A stretch of 24,306 nucleotides of DNA from Leptospiraceae bacterium (GCA_035331745.1 DAOLKF010000055.1:3961-28266); one strand, 5' to 3'. Positions 12,416 to 24,306 are shown, numbered from the stretch's first letter. Translations and numbers: made by a program. Notes: generated by a model from the sequence alone, not told the origin.

Positions 12416-13285
12416 ATGAATAAAACAATTGCTTTTATTGGTGTTGGGATTATGGGTCGTGGTCTTGTTAAAAACCTCAAAAAAACAAATACAAAATTAA
12501 AGATCTATGCGCGCAATCAATCAAAGATAGAATTTCTAAAAGATACAAATACAGAAATTTTCCCAACGATAGCCGACACGGTAAAAGATGCTGATTTCAT
12601 CATACTCTGTCTCACAGAGGATGAAGTTGTCGAGAAAGCTTTTTTTGAAGCTGTGGCTGAACCACAAAAAGCAATTGTTTTAGATTTTGGAACAAGTTCT
12701 CCAAAGCTGACAGAAAAAATGCAATATGAGTCAAAAAAAAGAGGCTTTCGTTTTATAGATTCTCCTATGACAGGAAGTAAGCTAGCAGCCGATAAAGGCG
12801 AAATTTTATTTATGGTAGGTGCTAGCCAAGAAGACTTTCAAGCTTGCAATTTTATCTGGGAAGCTTGTGGTAAAAAAGTAATTCATTGTGGAGATGTTGG
12901 AAATGGGCAGCTAATGAAGATTACCCTCAATATGATACAAGCGGGACTAGCACAAGTTTATATGGAAGGTCTTATACTTGGTAAAAAGCTAAGTTTAGAT
13001 TTGGGAGTATTGCATGAGATTATTACAAATTCTGCTGCACGCTCTGGAATATCTGATTTCAAAGTAAATTGCATACTAAACGATGACTACTCAACTCATT
13101 TTTCATTAAAAAATATGAATAAAGATTTAAATCATGCTCTTCGTATTGCAACGGAAAATAACGTTAGTCTACCAATTATTCATAGTGTAAAATCTATATA
13201 TGATGCGGGAATGTCTCATAATCAGGGAGAGGAAGATTTTATAAGTCTTTTCAAAATAAATAAACAAATCAATAATATTAATTAA
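12416..13285 (+). CDS. NAD(P)-dependent oxidoreductase, 3-hydroxyisobutyrate dehydrogenase / 6PGDH-like family
   Basis: 289 aa. N-terminal IAFIGVGIMGRG dinucleotide-binding motif. Family-typical DSPMTGS (catalytic region) and the Lys of the KxxxN motif. Confidence 0.75.
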   Translation: MNKTIAFIGVGIMGRGLVKNLKKTNTKLKIYARNQSKIEFLKDTNTEIFPTIADTVKDADFIILCLTEDEVVEKAFFEAVAEPQKAIVLDFGTSSPKLTEKMQYESKKRGFRFIDSPMTGSKLAADKGEILFMVGASQEDFQACNFIWEACGKKVIHCGDVGNGQLMKITLNMIQAGLAQVYMEGLILGKKLSLDLGVLHEIITNSAARSGISDFKVNCILNDDYSTHFSLKNMNKDLNHALRIATENNVSLPIIHSVKSIYDAGMSHNQGEEDFISLFKINKQINNIN

Positions 13286-15734
13286 TCTTATAACCCCATT
13301 TTAAAATTAAGTCTTCAATTTTTTCTTTTGTAAATGGCTTGCTTGCATAATCATTCATACCAACCTTAAAACAAGTGTCTCTAGTGGAATCGGTTACACC
13401 TGCAGTCACTGCAATAATTGGAGTCTCCTTGTAGTTTTCCAATTCTCTAATCTTTCTTGTCGCATCATATCCATCCATTTCTGGCATCTGAATATCCAAG
13501 AATATTAAATTAAATTGATTATTTTGACAAAGGGAGACAGCCTTTTTTCCATTGCTGACTTCTGAGAGCTTTGCTTTCGGTAAAATTCTAGAAATAATGG
13601 TTCTAATCAACATTAGGTTTATTTCATCATCATCTGCTACTAGAATTTGAATTGGTTTTTCTTTTAAAATGGCAAGGCTCGGTAAAATCTTACTTGCCTC
13701 CTCCGGTTCTCCAATCTTAACTCTTAACTTAAAAAAGAACTCACTGCCTTTCCCTAACTCACTATTAATCTCTAAATGACTATCCATTAATTGGAGTATC
13801 TTATTTGTTATCGGTAAACCAAGACCGATGCCACCATACTGCCGAACATTGGATTGATCCACTTGAGAAAAGAAATTTATAATCTGAGTTTGGTTCTCTT
13901 TAGAAATGCCAATACCTGTATCCCTAATGGAAAAAAGAAGGGTCGCTTCTTTATCCATCGGTTCCATTGCGTCATGCGTTACTTCAATTACTACATCTCC
14001 ACTGTCTGTGAACTTTATAGCATTACTTAAGAGATGTATCAAAATTTGTCTCAAGCGAATTGAATCTGTATAAATATAATGAGGGGTTTTTTCTGAAATT
14101 TTTAGTTTTAATTTTATATTTTTCTTTAACTTTAATTTATGAATCTCAGTTACTTGATCTAGAACACTAATCAAATCAACCTTTTCCATTTGAAGTTGTA
14201 TTTTTCCTAAATAGAGCTGACCAAAATCTAAGAGATCATTTAACTCGACTAACAATAAATTTCCCGATTGAAGAATCGTATTAACATATTTGATTTGAAT
14301 TTCATTTAAATGAGTGGATTTTAATAAATCAGAAAAACCTAAAATCGCATTGAGTGGCGTCCGAATCTCATGACTCATATTGGAAATAAATTGAGATTTT
14401 GCTGCGTTAGCCGACTCTGCTTCTTCTTTTGCTCTTCTTAATTCTATTTCTGATTTCCTTTCCTCAGTAATGTCTTTGCCATAGCAAGCAAGTCCAATTA
14501 TTTTCTTTTCTTTATAAATTGGTTTTATAATTAAACTAATCCATCCAACCGGACCTTCCGAATCTAATGTCCGGAATTCTGTTTTAACAATTTCACCGCT
14601 AAAACCTTGATCATAAAGCTTACGCCAATACTCTAAAATTTCTTTTGTGTAATAACTTTGATCCAAAAGAGAATTTCCTATTTCTAAGATTCTTCCAGTA
14701 GATTTTTGTATACTTGAAATAAATGCGTTATTTGCTGTAACTAAACAATAATTTCTATCAACCCCCCAAATTAAATCATCTATATTATTGAACAGAGCAT
14801 CTCTTTCAATATTCAGATTGATAATTGTATTTTCTTTTTCCCTTCTCTCGTAAAGAGTTGCCGTTAATACCATTGTATTAACCATAACAATGCTAATAAA
14901 GCTGTATAGAAGAAGTAAACTTGAATTGATTTCGCCTGTATAAAACGGTCCCTTACCGTTTACTGTTCCAAGAACCGCGATCATCATTGCAATAAATGCA
15001 AATAAATAAGAGACTTTTGCTTCTAAGCGAATCGCTGACCAAATTAAAAATGGAAATACAAACCAAGTCAGATATTTTCCAGAAATATAAAAATCATATT
15101 CGAAATGAATCATGAATTGTATAAAACATAAAAAGGAAAACAAAAGTATTGCTTCTAAAAATCGCTTAACACTATGAGGTTTGGTAGATATAAAAGACCA
15201 TGATAAGAGAAGAGATCCTAGTGTCAGAATTCCAAATGCATCCCCCGCCCACCAAGAAGCAATTGCATAACCAATATTACTCCATTTCAACATCCCATTC
15301 AAGCATAATCCTATTGAACCAATAATGGAGCTGAGAATTGGAGAAACTACTACTGAAAATAATAAAAAGAAGAAAATATCTTTTAGCCTAAGTAGAGATG
15401 GTCTTATTTTAAATTTTGTTTTCGCTAAATAGATTGAAATAATTGGCTCAAGAGTATTTGCGATAGTCGCAAATAAAACAAAGCTAATTGGAGCATTTGT
15501 TGTTAGGTTGGCGACAAAGGCTCCAACTGCTATTCCTAAGGTAAATCTATATCCAAAAAGAAATAAAATGGCTACCGAGAAACCGGAAGGTAACCAAAAT
15601 AGAGTTACATTAGATTGAATAAATGCAAATGTTAATCCAATTTTTGCTAATACAAAAAAAAGGATGGCAACAAGAGCATTCTTAAAAAAATAATTCAACT
15701 TTTTCATTTGATAATATTTATCAAAAAAATACAA
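13278..15734 (-). CDS. hybrid sensor histidine kinase / response regulator with polytopic N-terminal membrane sensor domain
   Basis: 818 aa. About 280 aa of 8-9 TM helices (MASE1-like topology), a PAS-like linker, an H-box (SHEIRTPLNAILGFSDLL), GHKL ATPase (N-box LLSNAIKFT, G-box GGIGLGLPITNKI) and a C-terminal receiver (ILVADDDEINL...IFLDIQMPEMDGYDA...K). Its 3' end overlaps the convergent oxidoreductase gene by 8 nt. Confidence 0.88.
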   Translation of the reverse strand: MYFFDKYYQMKKLNYFFKNALVAILFFVLAKIGLTFAFIQSNVTLFWLPSGFSVAILFLFGYRFTLGIAVGAFVANLTTNAPISFVLFATIANTLEPIISIYLAKTKFKIRPSLLRLKDIFFFLLFSVVVSPILSSIIGSIGLCLNGMLKWSNIGYAIASWWAGDAFGILTLGSLLLSWSFISTKPHSVKRFLEAILLFSFLCFIQFMIHFEYDFYISGKYLTWFVFPFLIWSAIRLEAKVSYLFAFIAMMIAVLGTVNGKGPFYTGEINSSLLLLYSFISIVMVNTMVLTATLYERREKENTIINLNIERDALFNNIDDLIWGVDRNYCLVTANNAFISSIQKSTGRILEIGNSLLDQSYYTKEILEYWRKLYDQGFSGEIVKTEFRTLDSEGPVGWISLIIKPIYKEKKIIGLACYGKDITEERKSEIELRRAKEEAESANAAKSQFISNMSHEIRTPLNAILGFSDLLKSTHLNEIQIKYVNTILQSGNLLLVELNDLLDFGQLYLGKIQLQMEKVDLISVLDQVTEIHKLKLKKNIKLKLKISEKTPHYIYTDSIRLRQILIHLLSNAIKFTDSGDVVIEVTHDAMEPMDKEATLLFSIRDTGIGISKENQTQIINFFSQVDQSNVRQYGGIGLGLPITNKILQLMDSHLEINSELGKGSEFFFKLRVKIGEPEEASKILPSLAILKEKPIQILVADDDEINLMLIRTIISRILPKAKLSEVSNGKKAVSLCQNNQFNLIFLDIQMPEMDGYDATRKIRELENYKETPIIAVTAGVTDSTRDTCFKVGMNDYASKPFTKEKIEDLILKWGYKIN

Positions 15735-15758
15735 CCTAGAAATTGAATCGATAGTTTT

Positions 15759-23355: not shown

Positions 23356-23841
23356 CTATATCTTTACATCTTTCTCATGGATAAACTTATTCAAATTGAT
23401 TAGAATTTTTAATGTATCTCCAGCCTTTCCAATCGAATCGATAAATCTTTCCATGTCCGCTTCCTCAAATCCGGGTGAGGGCTCTATCGAATCAGATGGA
23501 ATTTTCAATACTTCCTTCACTCCATCTACTATCAACCCTGCACTTAAATTGTTAAAACTCATGATTAATATACACGTAAACTCTGTATACTCTATCGCAG
23601 GCAATCCAAATCGCAACCGAACATCTATCACTGGAATTATCTTTCCTCTCAGATTGATTACTCCCTTCACATAATTCGGTAGATTCGGAACATATGTTAT
23701 CGGCTGAAACGCTATGATCTCTATCAGATATCGTATCTCTATTCCATATTCTCTTCCATCTATGAAAAAGATGATATACAGATTCTCCATCGTATCACCC
23801 GATTCCTCCGTTAGATCTATTTCCGTTGCTGTATTTGACAT
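23356..23841 (-). CDS. cheW: chemotaxis coupling protein CheW
   Basis: 161 aa, single CheW-like domain (YIIFFIDGREYGIEIRYLIEII...GLIVDGVKEVLKIP). Confidence 0.88.
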   Translation of the reverse strand: MSNTATEIDLTEESGDTMENLYIIFFIDGREYGIEIRYLIEIIAFQPITYVPNLPNYVKGVINLRGKIIPVIDVRLRFGLPAIEYTEFTCILIMSFNNLSAGLIVDGVKEVLKIPSDSIEPSPGFEEADMERFIDSIGKAGDTLKILINLNKFIHEKDVKI

Positions 23842-23849
23842 AGACCCTC

Positions 23850-24306
23850 CTATTTCAAGTCAATCTTCTTCTTCCCTGAGGACGATGATTGTTGCTCTCT
23901 CTTCTTATCATCTTTCGACTTCTTAATCGAAAATCGCTTCACCATCGTCTGGAAGGCTTCCGCTTGACTTGATAACTCAAGACTTGCAGCTGAACTCTCT
24001 TCCGCTGTCGCTGCTGCACTCATCGTCACTTGCGATATCTGGTTGATTCCACTCGTCGTCTGCACTACAGAAGAAGACTGTTCTATCGATGCACTTGCAA
24101 TATCCTTCACTAGTTCGGTTACTTCCACTACTCCGTTCGTCATCTTGCCTAGCTCGGTTGCTGTTCGATTCGCTATCTCCATCCCAGCTCGAACTGTCTT
24201 GATCGATCCTTCTATCATCTTCGTTGTCTCTTTCGCTGCATTCGCACTTCTAGATGCTAGGTTTCTCACTTCTTCTGCTACTACGTTAAAGCCCTTGCCA
24301 TGCTGT
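23850..24306 (-). CDS. mcp: methyl-accepting chemotaxis protein, C-terminal signalling domain only (5' part beyond window edge)
   Basis: Frame is open to the window end. Reverse-strand translation gives ...HGKGFNVVAEEVRNLASRSANAAKETTKMIEGS..., the highly conserved MCP signalling hairpin (GRGFAVVADEVRKLAERSA-type). Followed by a methylation-helix-like AAATAEESSAASLELSSQAEAF. Confidence 0.85.
   Translation of the reverse strand, partial: QHGKGFNVVAEEVRNLASRSANAAKETTKMIEGSIKTVRAGMEIANRTATELGKMTNGVVEVTELVKDIASASIEQSSSVVQTTSGINQISQVTMSAAATAEESSAASLELSSQAEAFQTMVKRFSIKKSKDDKKREQQSSSSGKKKIDLK

Follow-up and report, generated by a model that had tools for sequence, protein, structure and literature searches.

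A major vault protein homolog downstream of a spirochaete chemosensory cluster: a probable lineage-specific juxtaposition of independently evolving modules

The stretch of DNA analysed here, 24,306 nucleotides from a Leptospiraceae bacterium (GCA_035331745.1 DAOLKF010000055.1:3961-28266) and called the window below, carries between position 13278 and its right end nine minus-strand open reading frames (ORFs), in which a chemosensory (che) gene cluster is followed by genes for a major vault protein (MVP) homolog, a small cysteine-repeat protein and a hybrid histidine kinase. The original prediction, drawn up from the sequence of the window, had placed these nine genes, their gaps and their overlaps at positions that the ORF listing confirms, and Pfam upholds each of its domain calls (mcp, cheW, cheA, cheB, GHKL, cheY, MVP-like and hybrid kinase). 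It had also read the nine genes as one transcription unit and the whole as a candidate signal-controlled vault system, and it is this reading that is weighed here against related loci, which are numbered with an L. Many of the comparisons concern a genus-level Leptospiraceae group, called the clade, of 13 loci in seven lineages, whose MVP homologs are about 89-91% identical in amino acid and 76-87% in nucleotide sequence.

Genes of the locus

All nine genes are read from the minus strand. The row begins with an mcp gene (23850..24306), which is cut by the end of the window and is represented by its C-terminal signalling domain (Pfam MCPsignal, E 3.9e-19), and continues with cheW (23356..23841; Pfam CheW, E 2.8e-33, with an NCBIfam CheW match below the cut-off), cheA (21514..23343; Pfam Hpt, H-kinase_dim, HATPase_c and CheW) and cheB (20445..21524), which combines REC and CheB_methylest domains (Pfam CheB_methylest, E 7e-60; NCBIfam CheB, 400 bits, above the cut-off). 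A gene for a 415-residue REC-like/GHKL protein (19205..20452; Pfam HATPase_c only) and the single-domain response regulator gene cheY (18777..19148; Pfam Response_reg, E 3.6e-24) complete the cluster. The genes cheA and cheB overlap by 11 nt and cheB and the GHKL gene by 8 nt; 56 nt separate the GHKL gene from cheY, which probably starts at the ATG at 19142, gene callers giving a product of 121 residues.

The cluster encodes the core of a Che pathway, with MCP, CheW and a CheA that has both the phospho-His motif and domains P3-P5. In the translations this motif reads HTLKG within the Hpt domain of CheA, the signature DD, D, T and K of a phosphorylatable CheY appears as VDDSP, FDVNMPG, LTTES and VKPF, and CheB has the catalytic motifs GASTGG, H and D. 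Of the adaptation pair CheB is present; there is no cheR in the window, as the original prediction had said, and none was seen in the 10 kb of upstream sequence of L014 or upstream of mcp in L003, where a divergent GT2 gene stands, though the genome may carry one at another place. A second mcp-cheW pair lies upstream of the cluster in L014 and L022. The full-length orthologs of the receptor (1033-1490 residues; L014 1-6580, L003 1772-4873) have a 4HB sensor and many HAMP_2/HAMP_N3 units of the Aer2-type poly-HAMP kind.

The REC-like/GHKL protein starts with a degenerate REC-like region, followed by a GxGxGxL segment that is invariant, and ends in a GHKL ATPase domain in which the ATP-binding motifs N, G1 and G2 are intact. 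Its REC domain is degenerate in the clade of the window and canonical in distant family members. The idea that it might be a canonical histidine kinase was rejected, there being no HisKA match and no histidine invariant across the family. A search for this family gives 78 matches, and those with a named source come mostly from Leptospiraceae and other spirochaetes; the protein serves as a marker of this particular che cluster. In all four lineages whose context was read, its gene stands directly after cheB or cheA and before cheY.

The MVP homolog (16181..18679; 832 residues) begins 97 nt after cheY and has its own GGAG ribosome-binding site. Its sequence matches the Pfam families MVP_shoulder (PF11978; residues 516-621, E 2.7e-24, 85.9 bits against a cut-off of 25), Vault_3 (E 3.7e-8) and Band_7 (E 4.7e-6). 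A sequence search of the PDB returned MVP chains only, with an E-value of 4e-10 for the single sequence and 5.6e-26 for a profile, in which positions 460-767 are collinear with positions 467-807 of rat MVP, a range that takes in the shoulder together with the last repeat before it and the cap helix after it. An array of MVP-type repeat domains is indicated by the Vault_3 match to the last repeat, by a weak alignment of residues 210-349 to the rat repeats and by the Foldseek matches described below.

An AlphaFold2 model of the monomer, built from 115 sequences, has a mean predicted local distance difference test score (pLDDT) of 69; an earlier model from 20 sequences had reached 49, and its N-terminal half was discarded. 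The model has beta-rich repeats over residues 10-360, where confidence is moderate to low (block means of 44-89 over residues 1-390, and below 50 over about 211-260), a disordered stretch at 395-451, a confident shoulder and one single helix at 622-757 (pLDDT 67-93) that aligns to the rat cap helix. The protein is thus laid out as N-terminal beta-repeat domains, a disordered linker at about 395-451, the last repeat, an SPFH-like shoulder and a cap helix of 136 residues. Foldseek places the full-length vault MVPs of human, rat and rabbit first (E about 3e-27), the model aligning along the whole of the vault protein, then murine R1-R7 fragments (E about 1e-8) and then SPFH cage proteins. Because the PDB sequence matches, the AlphaFold2 model and the Foldseek matches agree, the window protein is a true member of the MVP family of a divergent 'bacterial' type. 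It is most likely the subunit of a large shell- or cage-like assembly. The linker (about 17327-17497) is a low-complexity insert of about 55 residues, predicted to be disordered and variable in sequence across homologs, which comes after the repeat array and before the last repeat with its shoulder and has no counterpart in the rat alignment.

Homologs of the protein are numerous, with more than 6,600 in the protein collection. The closest are found in metagenome-assembled genomes (MAGs) of Leptospiraceae, at 66-100% identity, which marks the window as DNA of an uncultured member of this family, itself a MAG, and full-length homologs at 52-56% identity come from sources named as Desulfobacterales, Planctomycetota, Bacteroidia, Melainabacteria and Gemmatimonadaceae; whether 20 or 115 homologs are aligned, well over a hundred invariant columns are held in common. 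Full-length MVP homologs are also encoded on 63 contigs of a viral collection (IMG/VR; L026-L088), which range from 4.9 to 416 kb, most being longer than 60 kb, and these homologs are 37-56% identical to the window protein (for example L087 10001-12427 and L028 9694-12177). On two of these contigs the neighbours of MVP are densely packed small ORFs on the same strand and phage-type helicases. PHROGs holds no family that matches MVP. Phage MVPs were reported in 2023 as two cases only (bioRxiv 10.1101/2023.11.10.566534), and MVP homologs are far commoner in large phage-like contigs than these two cases.

The Cys-repeat gene (15759..16142; 127 residues) follows MVP after 38 nt. Its translation has an apparent signal peptide and six C-x10-C repeats of the form DCKG[IV]ASxDKSWC, or more broadly [DN]DC[KR]G[IV]A[ST]xD[KR]xWC, with units of about 16 residues and an underlying 48/96-nt DNA repeat. 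Judging by the N-terminal sequence, the protein is apparently secreted. It matches no family in Pfam, NCBIfam or PADLOC, and its own family comprises 148 representative clusters without annotation. The gene stands after MVP in the window, L001, L014 and L022, and is absent in L002, L003 and L004. Among its distant homologs, the closest one examined is 69% identical, belongs to a high-GC organism and lies after a MarR gene, with no MVP; so high an identity is unusual in a repeat protein of this small size. With the gene missing from three of the seven lineages and a distant homolog adjoining a MarR gene, the Cys-repeat protein was rejected as a partner of MVP: the gene is probably unrelated to MVP.

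The last gene of the row encodes a MASE1-HisKA-HATPase_c-REC hybrid histidine kinase (13278..15734; Pfam). It is separated from the Cys-repeat gene by 24 nt if a TTG start is used and by 51 nt with the ATG at 15707, which is probably the true start, being the one that gene callers choose on identical contigs. Each of the seven clade lineages has a hybrid kinase gene after MVP on the same strand. The sensor part of the kinase is not constant, MASE1 being undetected in L001 and PAS domains being added in L002 and L014, and its identity across the clade is 38-55%, as against about 90% for MVP. PADLOC gave one marginal match for the kinase (E 2.7e-4) and no defence match for the MVP, Cys-repeat or GHKL proteins.

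At its 3' end the kinase gene runs into a plus-strand housekeeping block, with a convergent overlap of 8 nt with a dehydrogenase gene (12416-13285) that the original prediction had also described. The block comprises rnpA, yidC, jag, mnmE, a malic enzyme gene, clpS and this HIBADH-like dehydrogenase gene. A gene for a PilZ-domain protein (5308-6000, plus strand) has the pntAB transhydrogenase genes on one side and the rnpA-yidC block on the other.

Relatives of the locus and the block upstream of MVP

A scan of the genome collection with the single MVP protein gave four close relatives, and the wider context comes from 12 exact-protein look-ups and one scan of the viral collection. Inside the clade, the order mcp-cheW-cheA-cheB-GHKL-cheY-MVP is kept in the species of the window (L012, L013) and in L001, L003, L014-16 and L022-25. 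Two lineages, L002 and L004, keep MVP (89% amino acid identity) and the downstream hybrid kinase, and tblastn found no che gene in the 7-10 kb available upstream of their MVP genes. In L002 the upstream neighbour is a divergent DUF3137 gene, and the housekeeping block is the same as in the window; in L004 it is a divergent AAA_14/DUF4143 gene, followed by DUF3137. On the L004 contig, which belongs to a UBA MAG, the MVP frame (7283-9719) is split into two ORFs (7283-8680 and 8556-9719), through either an assembly frameshift or decay to a pseudogene.

In a neighbour-joining tree of the MVP DNA, the bootstrap values of which are usable for terminal pairs only, owing to the rooting, L002 and L004 form one group (100% bootstrap) nested among the che-bearing lineages, with the window basal. 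Because the che-less pair is nested in this way, the tree suggests a single loss of the che adjacency, with MVP retained, in L002/L004.

Outside the clade, 69 MVP loci were compared, namely the 63 contigs of the viral collection and six bacterial loci, of which three come from Leptospiraceae/Spirochaetota MAGs (MVP 66-69% identical) and three from distant lineages, one source-named Planctomycetota. At none of the 69 did tblastn find a match to MCP, CheW, CheA, CheB, GHKL, CheY or the Cys-repeat protein within 10 kb of MVP. Here MVP lies in unrelated neighbourhoods, and no neighbouring gene recurs across the six bacterial contexts. The che module, for its part, occurs without MVP in Leptospira biflexa (L017), where the order is mcp-cheW-cheA-cheB-GHKL-cheY-REC-PAS kinase, and the Spirochaetota assembly GCA_039028475.1 has cheA-GHKL-cheY on contig 26 but carries its MVP gene, with unrelated genes around it, on contig 13. 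Since the module is found without MVP in the one and unlinked from it in the other, the two can persist independently.

The original prediction had asked for comparative genomics of the synteny and had taken its absence from every relative, together with a strong terminator or independent regulation between cheY and MVP, as a sign of incidental adjacency. Synteny is not absent from every relative: the adjacency is kept in several close ones (the L001, L003, L014-16 and L022-25 loci), and it is missing from every compared locus outside the clade and from L002 and L004.

Between cheY and MVP lies a conserved non-coding block (18680..18750, minus strand), recognised by aligning the spacers of the clade and read here as the putative MVP promoter. 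The last 70 nt or so before the MVP ATG can be aligned across the seven lineages irrespective of the upstream gene, be it cheY or a divergent one; the 5' part of the cheY-MVP spacer shows no alignment between species. In the window the block contains, in this order, a T-run, TACTTGCTTGTTCT at 18726-18739 (minus strand), a -10-like TATGCT and the GGAG ribosome-binding site. The elements TTGCTT and TATGCT, separated by a 16-nt spacer, can be read as a promoter of the sigma-70 type; with this spacing, the second hexamer is TAAGAT, TAGAAT or TAACAT in the other species. Every one of the 13 clade loci has a single exact copy of the core TACTTGCnnGTTCT, always some 50-60 nt ahead of the MVP ATG, and the copy of the window occupies 18726-18739; the core is found at none of the 75 other loci, and the upstream motif is not conserved in L005-L011, beyond the clade. 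By eye, the TACTTGCnnGTTCT block fits neither the sigma-54 nor the sigma-28 consensus.

In L002 and L004 there is no co-directional upstream gene, so that their MVP promoter must lie in the spacer. Because the block of about 70 nt is the only part of the spacer that these two lineages share with the window, we infer that the MVP gene of the window, too, has a putative promoter of its own, about 25-60 nt upstream of the ATG. On the single transcription unit of the original prediction the observations point both ways: the packing on one strand is indeed tight and none of the intergenic gaps has a terminator-like site in a consensus scan, and a conserved promoter-like block precedes MVP.

Weighing the readings

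We think it likely that the region is a lineage-specific juxtaposition of independently evolving modules. The first of these would be an accessory chemosensory cluster of Leptospiraceae and related spirochaetes, made up of the receptor, CheW, CheA, CheB, the REC-like/GHKL protein and CheY, which presumably works as a normal Che phosphorelay, with the receptor controlling CheA and CheA phosphorylating CheY and CheB. The second would be a stand-alone MVP-homolog gene, transcribed mainly from its own conserved promoter. The small Cys-repeat protein, apparently secreted and present in only some lineages, would make a third module, and the MASE1 hybrid histidine kinase a fourth.

The distribution speaks for this reading. 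If a Che pathway has a dedicated non-flagellar output (an operon of the ACF type), its output gene should be inherited together with the che genes across lineages. Here the link is missing from all 69 outside loci and from two of the seven lineages inside the clade, and L. biflexa has the cluster without MVP. MVP is not a conserved output of the Che pathway. Because the co-inheritance expected of a real Che output is lacking, a signal-controlled vault is disfavoured, and the original prediction's view of MVP as the cargo of a chemosensory pathway fares poorly when L. biflexa, the unlinked genes of GCA_039028475.1 and the che-less L002 and L004 are added to the outside loci. Functional coupling between che and MVP is weakly supported, and we infer that it is absent.

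Several observations weigh against the juxtaposition of independent modules. The same-strand adjacency of che and MVP has persisted in five of the seven clade lineages, at an MVP DNA identity of about 76-85% where this was compared. The outside bacterial contexts number only six, and the contexts in the viral collection may not represent bacterial chromosomes. The conserved block could be a regulator-binding site, instead of or besides a promoter. Finally, co-transcription, or at least some read-through from cheY into MVP, is plausible, because the 97-nt gap has no predicted intrinsic terminator and folds, as RNA, no more stably than shuffled sequence does; the terminator that the original prediction had named as evidence against itself is thus not recognisable between cheY and MVP.

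Two readings couple MVP to signalling, and we regard each of them as unlikely. One is that of the original prediction, in which the nine genes are a single operon and MVP shells are produced or assembled under the control of the Che pathway, to which the hybrid kinase adds a second input. The tight packing on one strand, the want of a terminator-like structure between cheY and MVP and the gene order kept in five clade lineages agree with it, and no paper that links MVP with che genes surfaced in the literature searched. It has to contend, however, with a linkage absent from every outside locus and from two clade lineages that nonetheless keep MVP, with a che module that occurs without MVP in L. 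biflexa and unlinked from it in GCA_039028475.1, with a promoter-like block that precedes MVP whatever the upstream gene and with a Cys-repeat gene that comes and goes. The other, to which we give as small a chance, is confined to this genus-level group and holds that MVP has been secondarily recruited under signalling control, through read-through from che or through a regulator that acts on the TACTTGCnnGTTCT element. If this were true, shell production would respond to a chemosensory signal or to one from the MASE1 kinase, and the locus would offer the first regulatory handle on any bacterial MVP.

It is more doubtful still that the functional unit is MVP with the downstream hybrid kinase, with or without the Cys-repeat protein, such that the kinase senses a signal at the membrane or envelope and regulates MVP, with the che genes as bystanders. 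The kinase does follow MVP on the same strand in all seven clade lineages, including the che-less L002 and L004, and the conserved upstream element could be the binding site of a response regulator. Yet the pair is not kept outside the clade, the sensor architecture is unstable and the kinase far less conserved than MVP (38-55% against about 90% identity), and the kinase has no DNA-binding output, nor does a cognate DNA-binding regulator adjoin it in the window.

Least probable of all is that MVP is a recent, horizontally acquired gene of phage origin that landed between cheY and the kinase at the end of an ancestral che-kinase operon, as the full-length homologs on 63 viral-collection contigs (two with phage-type neighbours), the solitary and patchily distributed gene with its high identity across phyla and the sensor kinase that ends the L. 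biflexa che cluster (cheY-REC-PAS kinase) might suggest, since the MVPs of other Leptospiraceae, at 66-70% identity, are closer than those of any other phylum and suggest vertical descent, the GC content of the window is uniform and no phage genes lie in it, and the kinases of the window and of L. biflexa have no significant similarity in BLASTP, which leaves an insertion into an ancestral cheY-kinase operon speculative.

To our knowledge, the function of vaults is unresolved even in eukaryotes, and the MVP homologs of bacteria have yet to be characterised. A regulatory partner of MVP that was both real and conserved would be valuable, and this locus provides none: che and MVP adjoin each other in only a few related species, and MVP appears autonomous. 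Judging from the six bacterial contexts, bacterial MVP homologs are stand-alone genes. Within the clade, the short conserved element in front of the gene is the place at which to seek the regulation of MVP, and phage-like contigs may be a better lead to the function of MVP than the che neighbourhood.

Comparison with known systems

The locus adds one member each to two known kinds, the bacterial MVP homologs and the Che clusters of spirochaetes. For the latter the nearest counterpart is the cluster of L. biflexa, which has the same order, mcp(4HB)-cheW-cheA-cheB-REC-like/GHKL-cheY, at identities of 36-55%, and in which the cheA/cheB and cheB/GHKL overlaps are also present. It differs in having no MVP gene and in going on instead to another REC gene and then a gene for a PAS histidine kinase; its terminal kinase and that of the window share, in BLASTP, nothing significant beyond generic kinase motifs.

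Che-like pathways with alternative functions, such as Wsp of Pseudomonas, resemble the window in that a Che core including CheB stands apart from any obvious flagellar genes and two-component proteins are encoded at the 3' end. In such systems the output protein is a conserved partner and can receive a phosphoryl group, whereas the MVP of the window lacks a receiver domain and does not accompany the cluster as a conserved partner. A further example of these pathways is Che3-CrdA of Myxococcus xanthus (PMC3147164).

With eukaryotic MVP (rat and human; PDB 4V60, 4HL8, 9BW5) the window protein shares its overall length and the order of repeats, SPFH-like shoulder and long cap helix. Sequence similarity is low, with 16-19% identity in the Foldseek alignments, and the window protein has in addition the disordered insert before the last repeat. 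As to the partner components of vaults, the window contains no vault RNA and no TEP1-, PARP4-, TROVE, PARP or TIR-like protein; Rfam finds no family anywhere in it, hence neither riboswitch nor vault RNA. The SPFH/Band-7 cage formers (HflK/C, flotillin, prohibitin, stomatin) are likewise similar in combining an SPFH domain with a coiled coil (Foldseek E 1e-7 to 1e-4), but they lack MVP-type repeats, of which the window protein has about 450 residues. No integral-membrane domain is found in the window protein by Pfam; no transmembrane prediction was made.

Bacterial MVP-like proteins have already been reported in silico (PMC3762200, Daly et al. 2013; bioRxiv 10.1101/872010, Sokolskyi 2019), and a Band_7-like shoulder has been noted for the 'chemotroph' clade of bacterial MVP (bioRxiv 10.1101/872010). 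Neither bioRxiv 10.1101/872010 nor 10.1101/2023.11.10.566534 contains an analysis of the gene context of MVP. The family of bacterial and phage MVPs reported so far includes the window protein, which shares 53-55% identity with homologs from sources named as Desulfobacterales, Planctomycetota, Bacteroidia, Melainabacteria and others and is unusual only in its position directly downstream of a che cluster.

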